This document shows, piece by piece, positions 2,500-11,707 of a stretch of 25,404 bases of DNA. The translations under genes were made by a program, and so were the position numbers. Every line of letters begins with the position of its first letter. The first letter of the stretch is position 1. This stretch comes from a virus (taxonomy: Duplodnaviria > Heunggongvirae > Uroviricota > Caudoviricetes): IMG/VR virus record IMGVR_UViG_2534681674_000010; one strand, 5' to 3'. The notes under the pieces were generated by a model. The model was given only the letters and a program-made list of their open reading frames with translations. It searched no databases and had not been told where the DNA came from.

Positions 2500-4446
2500 T
2501 CATGCCGCAGTGTCTGTGCTGTTCACTTCCACCGCAATGCTGTCTATCAGTACCGGGTAAGTCGCACCTCTGGTAATGTCTGTCACATGCAGTTTATCCG
2601 CCGCAAAGGCACTGACCGGTGACTGCGTCAGCGTGAACGGTGTGCCATCCTGACCATCAATAACCGGCGTCACCTGCAGGCTGTTATTCCCGGCAAAGCG
2701 GAAAGCCAGCGTATGCCATTCGTTATCAAATGCGCCAAAGGTTCCCAGTTTCAGGTTGTTTGTCGCCACTTTCGCATTGTGGTACATCACATTCAGGTCT
2801 TTTGCATCTGTCTGGATGTAGAACGCTGCCAGCAGGTTATTCCCCCCATCTCCGGTCAGGGCAACGCCCTGTGGCAGTGAAGATACCGGCCAGTAAAACG
2901 CCATAACATACTGGTTCGCAGCCAGCGCTCCCGAAACCTTAAAGCGGCAGCGAATCTGCCCCCCTTTCTGTAACAGAGCCGCACCGTTGCCCGCGGCGTA
3001 CTCCAGCACCCAGCTGCTTTTACCGGCTTCCTTGGTCAGCTTCACTGCCTTACCTCCGGTTCCCTCCGCATCGCTGACCACTTCTGCCCTGCCGCCACTG
3101 GCTGACCATCCCTGTACTTTCAGGCTTCCCTCTGACTCGCTGGCAAGGTAAGAGAGCAGTGTTGTGACGCCTGTGGCTTCTGCACCGGAAGGCGATGACG
3201 GGCGCACCTCTGATACTGTCGATGATGCCCCCGCGTTTAGCGCCACTCCTCCCGCATGGCGCAAAATCGCCGTTGCCAGACGGTCGGAAATAATCCCGCG
3301 GCGAGCCCATGAACTGAAATGGCTCGCCCTGTCCTGTGACGTCCAGGTGGCTGAGCTGTCACGCCATTTCGAACCGTAATATCCGATACCCGGAATGTCC
3401 GGGTCTTCTTCCGGTTTGTTCGTCGGCACATTCACCCCGTTCTCATCCGTCATGAACGGTACGAAATGGATATTCTTTTCCGTTTTGTTTTTGTAGCTGC
3501 CGTACACCGTCTGGTACGTGGATTCGTTCTTCTGCTTCCAGAAATACGTCGTATCTCCACATATCCAGGGAACACCGCCAGCAGAGCCACCGACGCACTG
3601 ACCTGCCATATCCGCCAGGTCTGCACGGAATTTATCAACCAGCGCACCAAACTGTGCTGCGTGATTTACCGGCGTACCGCCAAAATCAAATTCCCCCTGC
3701 ATCCACACCACGGCAAGCAGCACATTTTTCGGGTTCTTCTTCAGTGCTGCTTTTGTTCGACCGATAAGGTGCTTATACAGCGGCTTGTCCACACCCCAGC
3801 GGGTTGAATTCTCCGAGGCACCACTCGCGTCACTGTATGTGCCATCGGCTCCGGTGGTGAACGCTGAACCACCACGACAGCACGGAACCAGCAGAATGCC
3901 CGCATTCGCCGGTATAAACGGCAGCAGTTTTTTGGCGATATGCAGCCCTTGCCCCACGGTTCCGTACTGCCCCTTTGACAGGTCCGCTTTCGGATGGTTA
4001 AGGCGGCTCATGTCCTGCACATCATGCAGACAATGGTCCGCCGGAATGATGTCGTTATATTTGCATGCTGCACCGCCCGGTGTCACCGTACTGCGGCGCG
4101 CCAGCTGCTTAATACGCGGGTCCGGACGGTCATATGTCTCCGGCAGCGGAAGGCCTTCACCATATGCCATGCTGTTTGACTGCCCCGCCAGAACCACAAC
4201 AAAGTAATACTCCGGGTCTCTGGTGGCGCTGATTACTGCACCTTCTCCACCTGTCGGCTTCACCACAACAGGTGTGCTCACATCACCTTCTGCGACAATC
4301 GCCTGAATAAGTGCTGCGCCATCATCCGTATACGAAGAAAACGGCCCACCATATGGTTGCCATCCTTCACGAATTTTTTGCGCAAGTGCATCAGCAAGGT
4401 CTGACGGCGACGCCGCCCTGACAACATCATAATGTTTAAATGTCAT
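2500..4446 (-). CDS. nanS-p: NanS-p-like prophage sialate O-acetylesterase (648 aa)
   Basis: Intact ORF; N-terminus MTFKHYDVVRAASPSDLADALAQKIREGW and size match recalled EHEC prophage NanS-p/Z1466-type esterases; position between Q region and lysis genes as in Stx phages. Confidence 0.75.
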   Translation of the reverse strand: MTFKHYDVVRAASPSDLADALAQKIREGWQPYGGPFSSYTDDGAALIQAIVAEGDVSTPVVVKPTGGEGAVISATRDPEYYFVVVLAGQSNSMAYGEGLPLPETYDRPDPRIKQLARRSTVTPGGAACKYNDIIPADHCLHDVQDMSRLNHPKADLSKGQYGTVGQGLHIAKKLLPFIPANAGILLVPCCRGGSAFTTGADGTYSDASGASENSTRWGVDKPLYKHLIGRTKAALKKNPKNVLLAVVWMQGEFDFGGTPVNHAAQFGALVDKFRADLADMAGQCVGGSAGGVPWICGDTTYFWKQKNESTYQTVYGSYKNKTEKNIHFVPFMTDENGVNVPTNKPEEDPDIPGIGYYGSKWRDSSATWTSQDRASHFSSWARRGIISDRLATAILRHAGGVALNAGASSTVSEVRPSSPSGAEATGVTTLLSYLASESEGSLKVQGWSASGGRAEVVSDAEGTGGKAVKLTKEAGKSSWVLEYAAGNGAALLQKGGQIRCRFKVSGALAANQYVMAFYWPVSSLPQGVALTGDGGNNLLAAFYIQTDAKDLNVMYHNAKVATNNLKLGTFGAFDNEWHTLAFRFAGNNSLQVTPVIDGQDGTPFTLTQSPVSAFAADKLHVTDITRGATYPVLIDSIAVEVNSTDTAA

Positions 4447-4534: not shown

Positions 4535-4630
4535 AAGAAATGAAAAAAGGCCACGCAGTTGCGCAGCCTGATAAACCCTGGTTAAAATCCACACGATAAC
4601 AACACAACAATATCAGTATCTCATGCTATT

Positions 4631-4657
4631 GCCCGAACCCATTCGGGCATTTTTTTA
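4631..4657 (+). terminator. intrinsic terminator (plus orientation)
   Basis: GCCCGAA-ccc-a-TTCGGGC followed by TTTTTTT. Confidence 0.45.
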
Positions 4658-4662
4658 CCCAT

Positions 4663-4686
4663 AAAAAAGCCCCTCCGGAGAGGGGC
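4663..4686 (-). terminator. intrinsic terminator (minus orientation), back-to-back with the previous one
   Basis: GCCCCTC-cgga-GAGGGGC; on minus strand followed by TTTTTTAT. Confidence 0.5.
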
Positions 4687-4924
4687 ATGTTTGCATGCAC
4701 ATTCTTTTTCTTGCATGGTGCCGGGTGCCTCCCGGTGAATTCAGTACCAGCACCTGAATCCGCGATTACCCCATATACCTGGTTGCTGATTGCCCCTCCG
4801 CACAGGGGGATTCACCATGCCAGTTTCTTTTAACAAACTCCCCGCAAACCAGACAACAGTCAACCGCCTGAATTGTGAGACATTTAAAAAAAGGCCCGCA
4901 AAAGCGAGCCAGGGAAAATAAGTG

Positions 4925-5000
4925 TGGCGCGTTGTACTGGATTCGAACCAGCGACCTGGCGACTATGCGTCGCTCGCTCTCACCACTGAGCTAAAGGGCC
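4925..5000 (-). tRNA. tRNA-like gene, CAU anticodon (Ile2/Met-like), probably degenerate
   Basis: Minus strand GGCCCTTTAGCTCAGTGGTGAGAGC...GCTGGTTCGAATCCAGT...GCGCCA; D, anticodon and T arms fold, T-loop TTCGAAT, 5' half resembles recalled tRNA-Ile2; 3' acceptor strand ACAACGC cannot pair with 5' GGCCCTT and position 33 is G. Confidence 0.5.
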
Positions 5001-9526: not shown

Positions 9527-9704
9527 TCAGTAAATCTGAGGATTTTATGCGCAAGAACAATGACTTTTTCTGTCTGCCGTTTATACAATCTGAATTACGT
9601 CTATTTTTTGAACACCGATAAATCAGCAAGCATTCTCAAATAAAGATTGCCTCCATAGTCCACATGGTGTAACACTATGTGTTATATAAAATGCAGAGGC
9701 AGGT

Positions 9705-10076
9705 ATGCGAATTTTCAAAAACGCCTGGTTTGAACGTTTCGCCCGAAAACATCGGATTTCCGATAAATCGCTGCGCAAAATCGTGGAGCAGGCCGATAAG
9801 GGGATCATATCCGCAAATTTGGGTAGTGGTGTCATTAAACAAAGATTAGCCCGAAGTGGTGGCGGAAAATCAGGCGGTTACCGGACAATAATTTTTTACC
9901 GCGTTGCAGAAAAAGCCTTTTTCATCTACGCATACGCAAAGAATGAACGAGAGAATATCACTGCTATAGAGGAAAATGCTTTTCGAAAAGCCGCTCCCCA
10001 TGTCCTCAATCTTACTGATGAACAGCTGGCACAATTGATTCAACAAGGCCAGTTCACGGAGGTACCCAATGAGTAA
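9705..10076 (+). CDS. RelE/HigB-family type II toxin (HigB2/Gp49-like)
   Basis: 123 aa; GGYRTIIFYRVAEKAFFIYAYAKNEREN...AFRKA typical of RelE-fold toxins; 8-nt overlap with downstream HTH gene. Confidence 0.65.
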   Translation: MRIFKNAWFERFARKHRISDKSLRKIVEQADKGIISANLGSGVIKQRLARSGGGKSGGYRTIIFYRVAEKAFFIYAYAKNERENITAIEENAFRKAAPHVLNLTDEQLAQLIQQGQFTEVPNE

Positions 10077-10386
10077 AAATTACCGCAGTGATGCACTTGC
10101 ATCTGTACATGAAATGATGGAGTCACTCCATGATATCGGTGCAATCACAAAACAAACTATGCGCGAATTCGATGAAACTTGTCTTCAGCCTGCGCCGGTA
10201 ATGTCTCCGGAAAGGATCCGTGCACTGCGAGAACGAGAGCATCTGTCTCAACCTGTTTTTGCCAGATACCTCAACGTCAGTAAAAACCTGATATCAGACT
10301 GGGAACGAGGAGTGAAACGCCCGGGAGGTGCAGCTCTTCGGCTTCTTTCAGTTGTCGAGAAAAACGGGATCCAGGTAATATCCTGA
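10069..10386 (+). CDS. HTH (XRE-family) antitoxin, HigA2-like
   Basis: 105 aa, C-terminal HTH LSQPVFARYLNVSKNLISDWERGVKRPGGAALRLL; overlaps toxin. Confidence 0.7.
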   Translation: MSKNYRSDALASVHEMMESLHDIGAITKQTMREFDETCLQPAPVMSPERIRALREREHLSQPVFARYLNVSKNLISDWERGVKRPGGAALRLLSVVEKNGIQVIS

Positions 10387-10488
10387 TATTCTAATACAAC
10401 AAAACCCGCCGAAGCAGGTTAAGTGCGGGTGCGTTGAGGATGCCTGACACATCAGAGGTGGCGAGGGATTTCTCCCTCGCCAGGTCTC

Positions 10489-10644
10489 TTACTCCTCAGG
10501 TTCGTAAGCTGTGAAGACAGCGACCTCCGTCTGGCCGGTTCGGATTCGTACCTCGCAGAGGTCTTTCCTCGTTACCAGTGCCGTCACTATGACGGTTAAA
10601 CAGATGACAATCAGGGCGATTAACATCGCCTTTTGCTGCTTCAT
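10489..10644 (-). CDS. hok: Hok/Gef-family type I toxin
   Basis: MKQQKAMLIALIVICLTVIVTALVTRKDLCEVRIRTGQTEVAVFTAYEPEE matches recalled HokD/RelF; AAGGAG RBS; GC hairpin GGCGAGGGA-tttc-TCCCTCGCC in 3' UTR (10459-10480). Confidence 0.85.
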   Translation of the reverse strand: MKQQKAMLIALIVICLTVIVTALVTRKDLCEVRIRTGQTEVAVFTAYEPEE

Positions 10645-10878
10645 AGCCTGCTTCTCCTTGCCTTTCGGCACGTAAGAGGCTAACCTACATGTGCAAAGCA
10701 TGAAATTGGCCTCAGATTAATGTTAAGCGTCCTGCAAGACGCGTAATGTTAACTGGGGCTTTTCTCTGTCTGCCTTACGGCGGCATGCCCGAGGCAGACA
10801 GCCTCAAGCACCCGCAGCAATTCTACTTAACTCTTCTTTCCCCGCAAATCATTTTATCCCCGATGGTAATGTTCTCCC

Positions 10879-10915: not shown

Positions 10916-11464
10916 TTAAAGCTCCATTAATTTTCCGGCCAGTTCATCTCGTGGCATTACCAGCCATCCGCGCGATTTAAGCAAAGCCAGGGCTTCTTCA
11001 ACCGTCACCAGCTGGCCAGGCGCATAACTTCGGATGAAGGCGGTTTTATCGTCACGGATCGCCAGGTGAAAATCGATATTCATTTTTCCCATAGCCCGCT
11101 CTTTCTCGTACTGGTTGAAGTAACTGTCTTCGAGTTTTTCGAATACTTCCCACGCCTGATCGGTTTCGAGCATTTTTGCATGACGGGCTGCTCCGCGTTC
11201 TGTCCAGAGGATGAGGGAACGAACGTTACGGGCGATTTTCACAGACCCACTTAAAGATGGTCTGTGCTTCAATTCACGTAACTCTTCACCTTCGATCTTA
11301 AAAAAGTGTTTTCCAATCTGAAAGCGCCCTACATTCCTTGCAAAGTTGTTTTGAATATTCTTAACGTCTGCACCATAAAGATGCGCCAACAACTCAGTGG
11401 TAATTACAGGGATTTGGTTGTAAGTAATAGCAACAAGAGTTTCAACAGAGATTTGAGTAGTCAT
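10916..11464 (-). CDS. phage antirepressor-like protein (ORF6N/KilA-N-type N-terminal domain)
   Basis: 182 aa; N-terminal TYNQIPVITTELLAHLYGADVKNIQNNFARNVGRFQIGKHFFKIEGEELRELK pattern. Confidence 0.5.
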   Translation of the reverse strand: MTTQISVETLVAITYNQIPVITTELLAHLYGADVKNIQNNFARNVGRFQIGKHFFKIEGEELRELKHRPSLSGSVKIARNVRSLILWTERGAARHAKMLETDQAWEVFEKLEDSYFNQYEKERAMGKMNIDFHLAIRDDKTAFIRSYAPGQLVTVEEALALLKSRGWLVMPRDELAGKLMEL

Positions 11465-11624
11465 AACGACACCCTAGGGTGGTTTCTAAACTATCACCAC
11501 CGTCAGGTCTCAATCGTCGGGTGGTGAGACGTACAGGGTTGAGACTACCGGGAAACCAACCGGCGAGCTTTTCAGCTCCCCTATACGCCCCACCATAATT
11601 CAGATGTGCGCGTGCATACGACAA

Positions 11625-11707
11625 TAAAAAACACGCTCGCGGCGTGTGTCTGTCGCGGTTTCTATCCGGGGTCTCAATCCCGACGGTCAACTCGACCGTG
11701 AGGTGAA
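11625..11707 (-). ncRNA. candidate small RNA (~80 nt) with its own promoter and terminator
   Basis: Minus strand TTGACG-18nt-TATATT (plus 11712-11741), then CGGUCGAGUUGACCG hairpin, then terminator ACACGC-cgcga-GCGTGT + TTTTTTATT; region 11465-11811 has no convincing ORF. Confidence 0.3.

Follow-up and report, generated by a model that had tools for sequence, protein, structure and literature searches.

The region from position 9668 to 10848 of the 25,404-nucleotide stretch of DNA analysed here (the window) very likely holds two self-contained, apparently intact toxin-antitoxin modules that converge on one another within a lambdoid prophage. This is the best explanation of the genes, family assignments, RNA elements and conserved motif that we observed, with toxicity, neutralization, repression and Sok action expected by analogy with HigBA2 of V. 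cholerae and A. baumannii, with hokW-sokW and with HokD/RelF. The original prediction had placed two toxin systems at 9705-10701; its elements stand at their coordinates, but position 10701 is the in-frame start of mok and not of hok, and the full feature extends over approximately 9668-10848.

The plus-strand toxin-antitoxin pair and its candidate operator

Module 1 (9668-10386, plus strand) would be a HigBA2-type type II system, made up of the following elements:

9668-9686, unstranded: imperfect palindrome of 19 bp, TGTAACAC-TAT-GTGTTATA, a candidate HigA2-like operator recognized from family-wide conservation
9685-9690, plus strand: candidate -10 of the type II operon (TATAAA), overlapping the right arm of the palindrome, inferred from the family consensus
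9696-9699, plus strand: toxin ribosome-binding site GAGG, 5 nt 5' of the ATG, read from the sequence
9705-10076, plus strand: toxin gene of the HigB2 type, RelE/ParE superfamily, 123 aa, assigned by Pfam PF06296
10069-10386, plus strand: antitoxin gene of the HigA2 type, 105 aa, with an N-terminal segment and a C-terminal XRE helix-turn-helix, assigned by HTH_3 and HigA-2 matches

Sequence and structure-model comparisons support the assignment of the plus-strand pair to the toxin-first HigB2/HigA2-type modules. The toxin matched Pfam RelE PF06296 over its full length (1-120/120, E=1.4e-47), a family listed under the name 'HigB2' as ribosome-dependent mRNases encoded toxin first (PMC11980606, Table 1), and its best match among PDB sequences was HigB-2 (E ~4e-4). 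When its AlphaFold model (pLDDT 82.5) was compared with the PDB by Foldseek, the top six matches were chains of V. cholerae HigB2 (E=2e-4, TM 0.5-0.57), followed by other RelE/ParE-superfamily toxins. Toxin residues R47, R60, Y77 and K79 align with R51, R64, Y82 and K84, the catalytic residues of V. cholerae HigB2 (PMC5416850). Across 30 toxin homologues, R60 and K79 were invariant and R47 nearly so; Y77 is the least certain of the catalytic assignments because the family mostly carries Phe at position 77, with Tyr at position 75. The antitoxin matched Pfam HTH_3 (E=1e-7), and the best PDB matches of its residues 45-99 were HigA-2 (E=6.7e-8), with no similarity to HigA2 detectable in the N-terminal 44 residues. 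The HigB2/HigA2-like identity proposed originally is thus upheld by PDB sequence matches for both proteins and by the fold of the toxin. PADLOC defence-system models matched neither the toxin nor Hok and gave only generic helix-turn-helix matches for the antitoxin; in NCBIfam, likewise, neither the toxin nor Hok reached the cut-off of any model, the Hok-family models scoring 48.5 bits where 73 are required.

Gene order was equally characteristic of the family. As predicted, the toxin precedes the antitoxin (9705-10076 and 10069-10386) with an overlap of exactly 8 nt (10069-10076), the commonest overlap among related loci (28/74); toxin and partner genes overlapped in 64 of these 74. Of 80 related loci, 78 carried an antitoxin homologue immediately 3' of the toxin and in the same orientation. 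With V. cholerae HigB2-HigA2 (PDB 5JA8, 5JAA, 8A0X) the pair shares the toxin-first order, the RelE-like fold and the aligned catalytic Arg, Arg, Tyr and Lys, together with an antitoxin of comparable size (~104 aa in HigA2) and a C-terminal XRE helix-turn-helix; the N-terminal segment, which neutralizes the toxin in HigA2, may do so here. Similarity is nonetheless low, at ~24% identity and a TM of ~0.5 to the solved HigB2 and ~35% identity in the helix-turn-helix; the window toxin also exceeds HigB2 by 13 residues and has an additional helical part at its C-terminus, and the pair is carried by a prophage, whereas HigB2-HigA2 of V. cholerae resides in a superintegron. A. baumannii HigBA2 shares the name and the gene order but is plasmid-borne; its toxin is an RNase and its antitoxin represses the operon promoter, with the toxin acting as co-repressor (PMC5906591). 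Growth arrest by the toxin and rescue by the antitoxin have been documented for the pairs of V. cholerae and A. baumannii (PMC5416850, PMC5906591). By analogy, the window toxin would be a RelE-fold, ribosome-dependent mRNA endonuclease, translation of the antitoxin gene would be coupled to that of the toxin gene, the toxin would be neutralized via the N-terminal segment of the antitoxin, and the operon would then be shut off.

The palindrome upstream of the pair occurs once in the window, and its arms are complementary at 7/8 positions. Palindromes of such quality are expected at ~0.2-0.4 per 60-nt stretch, so that chance suffices to explain one; the palindrome alone was therefore rejected as evidence and conservation was used instead. 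Its significance rests on conservation across the family: among 79 distant loci, 57 had a copy with ≤5 mismatches in the 90 nt 5' of the toxin start, as did 1 of 1,897 control segments. When the pattern was set strictly to TGTA-N11-TA(C/T)A, only 6 of 80 upstream regions matched; it was dropped as too narrow, after which a mismatch-tolerant search revealed the motif. The palindrome was also identical at 19/19 positions in an 83%-identity O104:H4 variant, despite an unrelated upstream flank, and its arms tend to co-vary (425 symmetric cells versus 404.8 +/- 6.7 in shuffles). A second, overlapping palindrome at 9662-9680 was not conserved in the O104:H4 variant and was discarded.

In the family consensus, a TTGAAG-like -35 lies directly 5' of the palindrome and a TAtata hexamer begins at palindrome position 18, giving a 17-nt spacer, so that the palindrome fills the space between the -35 position and a -10. 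At the -35 position of the window (9662-9667) the sequence is ACATGG, a poor match; the promoter is weak on paper and was not called by a consensus promoter scan, and the predicted leader comprises only ~8 nt. The operator of V. cholerae HigA2, defined by footprinting as TGTACGC-N5-GCGTACA, also lies between -35 and -10 (PMC11006873). Both are single 19-bp inverted repeats that reach from the -35 over the -10 and share the outer bases TGTA...TA(C/T)A, and they differ in sequence (TGTAACAC-TAT-GTGTTATA in the window). Conservation and this analogy make the palindrome a very probable operator of the type II operon, strengthening the earlier proposal of an autoregulatory site overlapping the likely -10.

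The minus-strand hok gene and its predicted Sok antisense RNA

Module 2 (10393-10848) would be a complete type I system made up of hok, mok and sok. The consensus promoter and terminator scan called neither the type II promoter nor those of hok and Sok, and it also missed the Sok terminator; promoters and Sok terminator were accordingly placed by homology to annotated or tested loci. The elements are:

10393-10420, minus strand: intrinsic terminator of the hok mRNA, AACCTGC-TTCG-GCGGGTT followed by UUUUGUUGUAUU, from terminator scan and mRNA fold
10425-10439, minus strand: fbi (fold-back inhibition) element CCTCAACGCACCCGC, with complementarity to the 5' end of the mRNA, from the mRNA fold
10460-10481, minus strand: hairpin in the hok 3' UTR, GGCGAGGGAGAAATCCCTCGCC, from the mRNA fold
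10489-10644, minus strand: hok, membrane toxin, 51 aa, by Pfam HOK_GEF (PF01848)
10489-10701, minus strand: mok, 70 aa, in-frame upstream extension of hok, from the open reading frame list and alignment to mokC
10658-10686, plus strand: putative Sok promoter, -35 TTGCCT (10658-10663), 17-nt spacer and -10 TAACCT (10681-10686), by identity to sokW
10693-10769, plus strand: predicted Sok RNA of ~77 nt, antisense to the start codon of mok and to its ribosome-binding site, by sokC/sokB alignment
10710-10713, minus strand: mok ribosome-binding site GAGG, read from the sequence
10802-10815, minus strand: tac element GCGGGTGCTTGAGG at the hok mRNA 5' end, from the Rfam model, conservation and fbi pairing
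10820-10848, minus strand: putative hok promoter, -10 TAGAAT (10820-10825) and -35 TTTGCG/TTGCGG (10842-10848), inferred from alignment

By sequence, the minus-strand gene is a Hok-family type I toxin, as originally predicted: it matched 42/42 positions of HOK_GEF (E=1.2e-23), and the protein is identical to K-12 HokD/RelF, whose toxicity is known. The mok start aligns with the annotated start of K-12 mokC. The 102-nt gap between the antitoxin and hok stop codons corresponds to the hok 3' UTR, with the hairpin at 10460-10481, fbi at 10425-10439 and the terminator hairpin and U-tract at 10393-10420, the terminator being common to K-12 hokD and O104:H4 hok. The predicted hok mRNA extends from ~10814 to 10393, with transcription starting at ~10813-10814 (the Rfam model begins at 10813), and in both minimum free energy and centroid folds of the full-length molecule fbi (10425-10439) paired with 10802-10815 (z = -8.6). 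The tac element is conserved in hokC, hokB and hokW, and in alignment the candidate hok -10 falls opposite TATAAT in hokC and TAGGAT in hokB, equally far from GGGTGC.

The Sok partner, which had not been located previously, lies at 10693-10769 on the plus strand, with ends placed by aligning it with the sokC and sokB RNAs annotated in K-12. The Sok-like promoter (10658-10686) and terminator for which a search had been suggested are both present, the terminator in the form of a hairpin and U-tract. In the predicted fold of the RNA (-30.2 kcal/mol, z = -4.8), a 5' tail precedes a long hairpin and the U-tract. Its promoter region is identical in sequence to that of sokW, and its -10, TAACCT, coincides with the element altered in the 'pro-less' sokW mutant of phage Sp5, in which a change of TAACCTA (primers YO-421 and YO-422) abolished antitoxin activity (PMC8621323). 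Rfam RF01794 gave a hit at 10639-10813 (117 bits) on the complementary strand, that of the hok leader; this 'sok' match was rejected as Sok itself, since it is on the minus strand, ends at the hok AUG and marks the hok leader.

Because the promoter, the tac-fbi pairing and the terminator are kept in the hok mRNA, and because a Sok with promoter and terminator is present, this hok copy is probably regulated rather than silent. The hok mRNA would be stable and held closed by pairing of its 5' and 3' ends, and translation of hok would require that of mok. Sok, by pairing over the mok ribosome-binding site and start codon, would block translation and trigger decay of the duplex; a fall in the level of Sok would then allow Hok to be made and to damage the inner membrane.

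The closest working relative is hokW-sokW of Sakai prophage 5 and 933W-type Stx2 phages, a functional type I pair of toxin and antitoxin RNA that speeds lysis after mitomycin C and in which antitoxin activity depends partly on RNase III and Hfq (PMC8621323). Killing by Hok once the unstable Sok is gone, with RNase III cleaving the duplex, has been shown for this relative. The two loci are ~91% identical in DNA over their whole length and share the 51-aa length of the Hok-family peptide, the identical Sok promoter region, an extended Sok hairpin (an 18-nt insertion relative to K-12 sokC) and a lambdoid prophage setting of the same kind. They differ in five C-terminal residues of Hok, in their other neighbouring genes and in the mRNA 3' end after fbi, where the window locus ends in the AACCTGC/GCGGGTT terminator. 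In the target-recognition tail of Sok, formed by its first 20 nt, approximately 7 positions also differ from sokW, and cross-talk is therefore probably limited.

K-12 hokD (relF), in the cryptic prophage Qin, encodes an identical Hok and is ~99% identical in DNA from the hok ribosome-binding site to the terminator. It occupies the same backbone slot, between immunity/replication genes and DUF968-Q, and in both prophages a RelE-superfamily type II pair adjoins hok. In Qin, the 3' end of relE replaces the hok promoter, tac, the mok start and Sok, whereas the window hok keeps its own regulation. The Qin pair has the RelB antitoxin first and a RelE of the Pfam ParE family, and lies upstream of hok in the same orientation; the window pair belongs to PF06296, has the toxin first and is downstream of hok and convergent with it. 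A relBEF-like cluster (relB-relE-hokD under the relB promoter) was consequently rejected on gene order, family and orientation, the window hok having its own promoter and Sok.

More distant counterparts are R1 hok/sok and K-12 hokC-sokC and hokB-sokB, which have in common with the window locus the promoter, the GGGTGC 5' end, mok and hok reading frames that overlap, a Sok encoded in cis and antisense to the start of mok, and a fold-back element at the 3' end. According to work of the Gerdes laboratory, promoter, GGGTGC 5' end, mok, Sok and fold-back reportedly define the hok/sok family. The window locus differs from R1, hokC and hokB in its diverged sequence, in its longer Sok hairpin and in its prophage setting, as opposed to the plasmid of R1; HokW, a close relative, is 44% identical to R1 Hok (PMC8621323).

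Prophage setting and alternative readings

The whole window is 100% identical to sequence in E. coli O157:H7 PV15-279 and in many other STEC-type strains, where the host element is a Qin-like lambdoid prophage integrated beside ompW in Shiga-toxin-producing-type E. coli. Its neighbours are annotated as prophage genes and its backbone matches that of K-12 Qin, in which hokD occupies the same slot. The modules sit in an accessory-gene slot with replication genes on one side and DUF968-RusA-Q genes on the other; hok shares the orientation of the early-right operon of the prophage and the type II pair is opposed to it. Of 5,426 E. coli genomes, 4,722 had hok alone, 217 had the type II pair and 169 had the two in this joint arrangement, the last nearly always at ≥99% identity. 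The adjacency of type II pair and hok is thus specific to essentially one near-identical prophage lineage. Among deposited phage genomes the type II pair was nearly absent, with PhiR12_3 the only close relative, and one distant relative (36% identity) was found in a Salmonella genome record.

Alternative readings of each module were weighed against these observations. The type II pair may not be a working poison-antidote system, the antitoxin being the selected part, for instance in DNA-binding regulation or in anti-addiction, and the toxin weak, inactive or in the process of being lost. In keeping with this, conservation was higher in the antitoxin than in the toxin at 73 of 74 related loci, and in a 30-genome sample of the 217 carriers a sizeable share of strains had a disrupted toxin beside a retained antitoxin. 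Frameshifts break the toxin in the O104:H4/PhiR12_3 variant, a 1-nt insertion splits it in another lineage and IS66 cuts it in a third, with the 105-aa antitoxin intact in all three; the toxin may therefore be dispensable or costly. We nevertheless regard a non-working pair as unlikely, since repeated loss of the toxin with the antitoxin kept is also what an active, costly toxin would produce, and in the window the toxin reading frame is full length, matches its Pfam model end to end and retains Arg, Arg, Tyr and Lys at the positions that align with the catalytic residues. Among hok loci decay is common, K-12 hokD being truncated of everything upstream of the hok ribosome-binding site and hokC being flanked by IS186, and the window copy could in principle be a silent relic of the kind formed by several K-12 chromosomal hok loci, giving no regulated Hok. 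Although its hok and Sok promoters fell under the consensus scan threshold, we consider such a relic highly improbable: the promoter, tac, mok with its ribosome-binding site, the Sok promoter and RNA, hok, fbi and the terminator are all undisrupted, and the Sok promoter and hok leader are nearly identical to those of the working hokW-sokW (PMC8621323).

The two modules could also be coupled by convergent transcription. Read-through of the type II operon past 10386 would yield a long antisense RNA on the Sok-sense strand, adding HigA2-controlled silencing of hok, or would interfere with the Sok and hok promoters; conversely, transcription from hok or from early phage genes would cross the type II operon in antisense. 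The opposed orientations of the pair and of hok with the early-right operon fit such coupling. The plus-strand hairpin after the antitoxin (AACCCGCCGAAGCAGGTTAAGT) contains an A-C mismatch and lacks a U-tract, whereas its counterpart beside the pair in O104:H4 is a perfect two-way terminator (AAAACCCGC-CGAA-GCGGGTTTT). The terminator scan called no plus-strand terminator from 10386 to the Sok terminator, which is weak evidence because the same scan missed the Sok terminator. With none evident after the antitoxin, some transcriptional interplay with hok could therefore occur. Against coupling, the pair and hok are found apart in other prophages: strain SLK172 carries the type II pair without an adjoining hok, and in O104:H4 a doc-type pair lies between them. 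The convergent, tail-to-tail layout described originally was confirmed, but it implies no functional coupling, and the confinement of the joint arrangement to a single lineage points the same way. Coupling by convergent transcription is accordingly doubtful in the extreme, and it is just as doubtful that read-through antisense transcription wires the modules into one induction- or stress-sensing prophage kill switch, in which derepression of the HigBA2-type operon, or opposing early-phage transcription at induction, might shift hok and Sok expression. In a weaker variant, the replication-Q slot might be a dedicated toxin-antitoxin island selected for defence or lysis timing. The O104:H4 slot holds HigBA2-type, doc-type and hok modules together. 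In all likelihood, the adjacency of the two modules is an accident of mosaic prophage evolution, and the only part they share is the junction at the hok terminator.

Both modules are ordinary members of well-known families, and the current understanding of neither family is altered. Their practical value lies mainly in annotation: public records of these prophages name the toxin and hokD, describe the antitoxin simply as a 'helix-turn-helix protein' and omit mok, Sok and the operator, and a literature search found the protein accessions of the type II pair mentioned in no paper. For the hok family, the locus represents the complete form of the truncated K-12 hokD (relF) locus. The PF06296 family keeps a 19-bp operator motif across distant phyla, and its antitoxin is more strongly conserved than the toxin. 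If the modules act like hokW-sokW, they could influence the timing of lysis, the release of phage or the retention of the prophage in pathogenic E. coli.

The type II pair and its predicted operator

Both toxin-antitoxin modules described in the original prediction were confirmed, its interpretation of them is supported, and the two modules are members of well-known families. Their features are as follows.

9668-9686: palindrome TGTAACAC-TAT-GTGTTATA, candidate operator
9685-9690, plus strand: candidate -10 of the type II promoter (TATAAA, good)
9705-10076, plus strand: toxin ORF, 123 aa
10069-10386, plus strand: antitoxin ORF, 105 aa, overlapping the toxin by 8 nt
10393-10420, minus strand: hok terminator
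10425-10439, minus strand: fold-back element (fbi)
10460-10481, minus strand: hok 3' UTR hairpin
10489-10644, minus strand: hok ORF, 51 aa
10489-10701, minus strand: mok ORF, 70 aa, in frame with hok
10658-10663 and 10681-10686, plus strand: Sok promoter (-35 TTGCCT, 17-nt spacer, -10 TAACCT)
10693-10769, plus strand: Sok RNA, 77 nt, where sokC and sokB both map
10820-10825, minus strand: predicted hok -10 (TAGAAT), aligning with the hokC and hokB -10

The plus-strand toxin and antitoxin ORFs lie in the order and with the overlap originally described, and their HigB2/HigA2-like assignment was borne out by protein comparisons. The toxin matched Pfam PF06296 over its whole length (E=1.4e-47), a family that a recent survey lists under 'HigB2', a toxin-first group of ribosome-dependent mRNases (PMC11980606). 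Among proteins of solved structure, V. cholerae HigB-2 was the best sequence match to the toxin (E about 4e-4), and HigA-2 was the best match to the antitoxin, with E=6.7e-8 across helix-turn-helix residues 45-99. The top PDB fold matches of an AlphaFold toxin model (30 homologues as input; pLDDT 82.5) were HigB2 chains (E=2e-4, TM 0.5-0.57), followed by other RelE/ParE-superfamily toxins. Toxin residues R47, R60, Y77 and K79 align with HigB2 R51, R64, Y82 and K84, found important by mutagenesis (PMC5416850), with R60 and K79 invariant across the homologue alignment. Of 80 related loci, drawn from many phyla, 78 carried an antitoxin homologue directly 3' of the toxin on the same strand. Both proteins had full-length matches in 74 loci; in 64 of these the genes overlapped, most commonly by 8 nt. 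Tested relatives suggest that the toxin would cut ribosome-bound mRNA and that the antitoxin would both neutralise it and repress the operon. Neither the type II toxin nor Hok matched the PADLOC defence models.

The palindrome proposed as an autoregulatory operator is present at 9668-9686; taken alone it could be a chance occurrence, as any 60 nt would be expected to hold 0.2-0.4 palindromes of this kind. Scanning the 90 nt before each toxin start revealed a 19-mer with at most five mismatches to it in 57 of 79 loci; of 1,897 control segments of 90 nt taken from those loci, 1 had such a match. Every upstream copy sat 26-61 nt before the start codon. In the family consensus (cTTgAag-TaTaAcAC-Taa-GTGTgATA-tata), the palindrome forms the 17-nt spacer after a -35-like TTGAAG and the -10 starts within the right arm, in agreement with the predicted overlap; this family-wide placement between -35 and -10 argues for the operator reading. 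The arms tend to co-vary (425 symmetric cells versus 404.8 +/- 6.7 when shuffled, a statistic that ignores the kinship of the loci), and positions 4 and 14 show paired switches from A-T to G-C. When the window is aligned with the 83%-identity E. coli variant, homology starts at the palindrome, which is identical at 19 of 19 positions, the left flank being unrelated and the right spacer diverged. The footprinted operator of V. cholerae HigA2 is likewise a single 19-bp inverted repeat (TGTACGC-N5-GCGTACA), which begins right behind the -35 and extends across the -10 (PMC11006873). In A. baumannii, HigA2 is a repressor of its promoter and the toxin serves as co-repressor (PMC5906591). Given family conservation, arm co-variation and these parallels, the palindrome is, by comparison, well supported as the predicted operator of the type II operon. 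The weak point of this case is the promoter in the window, with a poor -35 position (ACATGG) and a predicted leader of only about 8 nt. A second imperfect palindrome, ACATGGTG-TAA-CACTATGT (9662-9680), overlaps the left arm; the O104:H4 variant does not conserve it, so it is probably fortuitous.

Across carrier strains, the toxin has been lost repeatedly and the antitoxin kept. Compared with window 9705-10386, the 105-aa antitoxin was intact in the O104:H4/PhiR12_3 variant, where the toxin is frameshifted (O104:H4 2009EL-2050, locus L003, 2477-3219), in a second lineage, where a 1-nt insertion splits it, and in a third, where IS66 cuts it (further carrier loci compared: L006 2606-3288 and L005 2414-3028). 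The toxin was split or truncated in about 12 of 30 genomes sampled at even spacing from the 217 carriers. The antitoxin was also more conserved than the toxin in 73 of 74 related loci from other genomes (L010-L089 versus window 9705-10386), with mean identities to the window pair of 69.9% and 56.9%, respectively. This is the opposite of our expectation for type II pairs, and fits a deeply conserved operator.

The hok/mok/sok locus

The minus-strand hok is a Hok-family type I toxin gene as predicted, its product matching Pfam HOK_GEF (E=1.2e-23) and being identical to K-12 HokD/RelF. Position 10701, however, is the start of mok rather than of hok, since the 70-aa in-frame mok ORF extends to it. 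The 102 nt separating the two stop codons constitute the hok 3' UTR and contain the 3' hairpin that had been placed between the modules. The hok mRNA extends from about 10814 to 10393, and in its minimum-free-energy fold (z = -8.6) the 5' end (10802-10815) pairs with the fold-back element, the terminator hairpin forming the 3' end.

Sok, which the original prediction had not located, was placed by aligning the locus with K-12 hokC and hokB, which have annotated sokC and sokB RNAs. Its predicted fold (-30.2 kcal/mol, z = -4.8) has a short tail at the 5' end, then a long, terminator-like hairpin with a U-tract, and the RNA covers the start codon of mok (10699-10701) as well as its ribosome-binding site (10710-10713). 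Its promoter (10658-10686) lies on the plus strand, with seven bases from the -10 to 10693. The Rfam 'sok' model (RF01794, 'sok antitoxin') matched 10639-10813 on the minus strand (117 bits); this match marks the hok leader, because the model is written in the hok-leader sense and stops at the AUG of hok. Automated annotation based on RF01794 would therefore put Sok on the wrong strand. The parts that define a regulated hok locus are known from the general hok/sok literature, and all of them are present and undisrupted in this sequence. As in tested relatives, Hok should damage the inner membrane once Sok falls. In public annotation of these prophages, mok, Sok and the operator are missing and the antitoxin is not labelled as one, and a literature search by the protein accessions of the type II pair found no citing papers.

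Prophage setting and the junction between modules

The 1.6 kb around the modules was 100% identical to the E. coli O157:H7 PV15-279 chromosome and to many other O157, O103, O111, O145 and O26 strains. By annotation, the neighbours are lambdoid prophage genes, with cI/Cro-like regulators, replication genes and an ORF6N protein on one side and a DUF968 protein, RusA, Q antiterminator and lysis genes on the other, and the integrase adjoins ompW. The backbone is that of the K-12 cryptic prophage Qin, which holds hokD in the same slot; DicF RNA (16628-16679, plus) adjoins dicB, as in Qin. Rfam matches to C4 antisense RNA (11517-11600) and isrK (11626-11699) lie just upstream of the ORF6N-domain gene (10916-11464; whole layout 10916-11699, minus), which also had weak PADLOC PDC-S05 matches, and this layout resembles an sRNA-controlled anti-repressor module. 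A further RNA cluster at 4594-4994, comprising AgvB (4594-4655, plus), STnc100 (4657-4849, minus) and a tRNA (4935-4994, minus), lies between the lysis genes and the DNA-methyltransferase gene that comes after Q. In Stx phages, the toxin genes occupy the equivalent region.

Among 5,426 complete E. coli genomes, 4,722 carried hok-like loci (median two places per genome), 217 the type II pair and 169 the joint arrangement. Nearly all joint copies were at least 99% identical, pointing to one recently spread prophage lineage. Strain SLK172 carries the type II pair without hok beside it, and O104:H4 has two genes between the pair and hok, one for a doc-type toxin and a small one upstream of it. The terminator hairpin is native to hok, as it also occurs in K-12 and after the O104:H4 hok. 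A second, inverted copy in O104:H4 suggests that recombination took place at this hairpin, which looks like a joint between cargo modules. Coupling of the modules, with the type II transcript reading through hok in the Sok sense, is a low-probability hypothesis; it is based on the window hairpin being a good terminator on the minus strand only, as judged with a promoter and terminator scan of low sensitivity. In O104:H4, two oppositely oriented copies of the hairpin (window 10393-10420; L003 about 3225-3250 and L003 about 4060-4090) flank the doc-type and small upstream genes, with one copy after hok and one after the antitoxin gene. The inverted copy after the antitoxin gene is a perfect two-way terminator.

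Relation to K-12 hokD and hokW-sokW

Between the hok ribosome-binding site and the end of the terminator, K-12 hokD and the window share about 99% identity. All that lies upstream (hok promoter, tac, mok start and Sok) is replaced in K-12 by the relE 3' end. The hokD locus is therefore complete in the window, and K-12 keeps a truncated gene behind relBE. The hokW-sokW locus of Stx2 phages is about 91% identical to the window locus, with an identical Sok promoter region. Antitoxin activity was lost in its 'pro-less' mutant, in which, per the mutagenic primers, TAACCTA was altered (PMC8621323); exactly this stretch carries the Sok -10 in the window.

About 7 of the first 20 Sok nucleotides, the part expected to recognise the target, differ from sokW (10693-10715 versus L009, the hokW-sokW locus), whilst the promoter and hairpin stem are conserved. 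As these genomes hold up to 10 hok-like places each, such 5' divergence may limit cross-talk between paralogous hok/sok copies. Under mitomycin C, hokW-sokW shows lowered Sok, RecA-dependent elevation of Hok and an approximately two-fold increase in phage release (PMC8621323). By analogy, a similar response could also apply to the hok described here, since it is co-oriented with the early-right operon.
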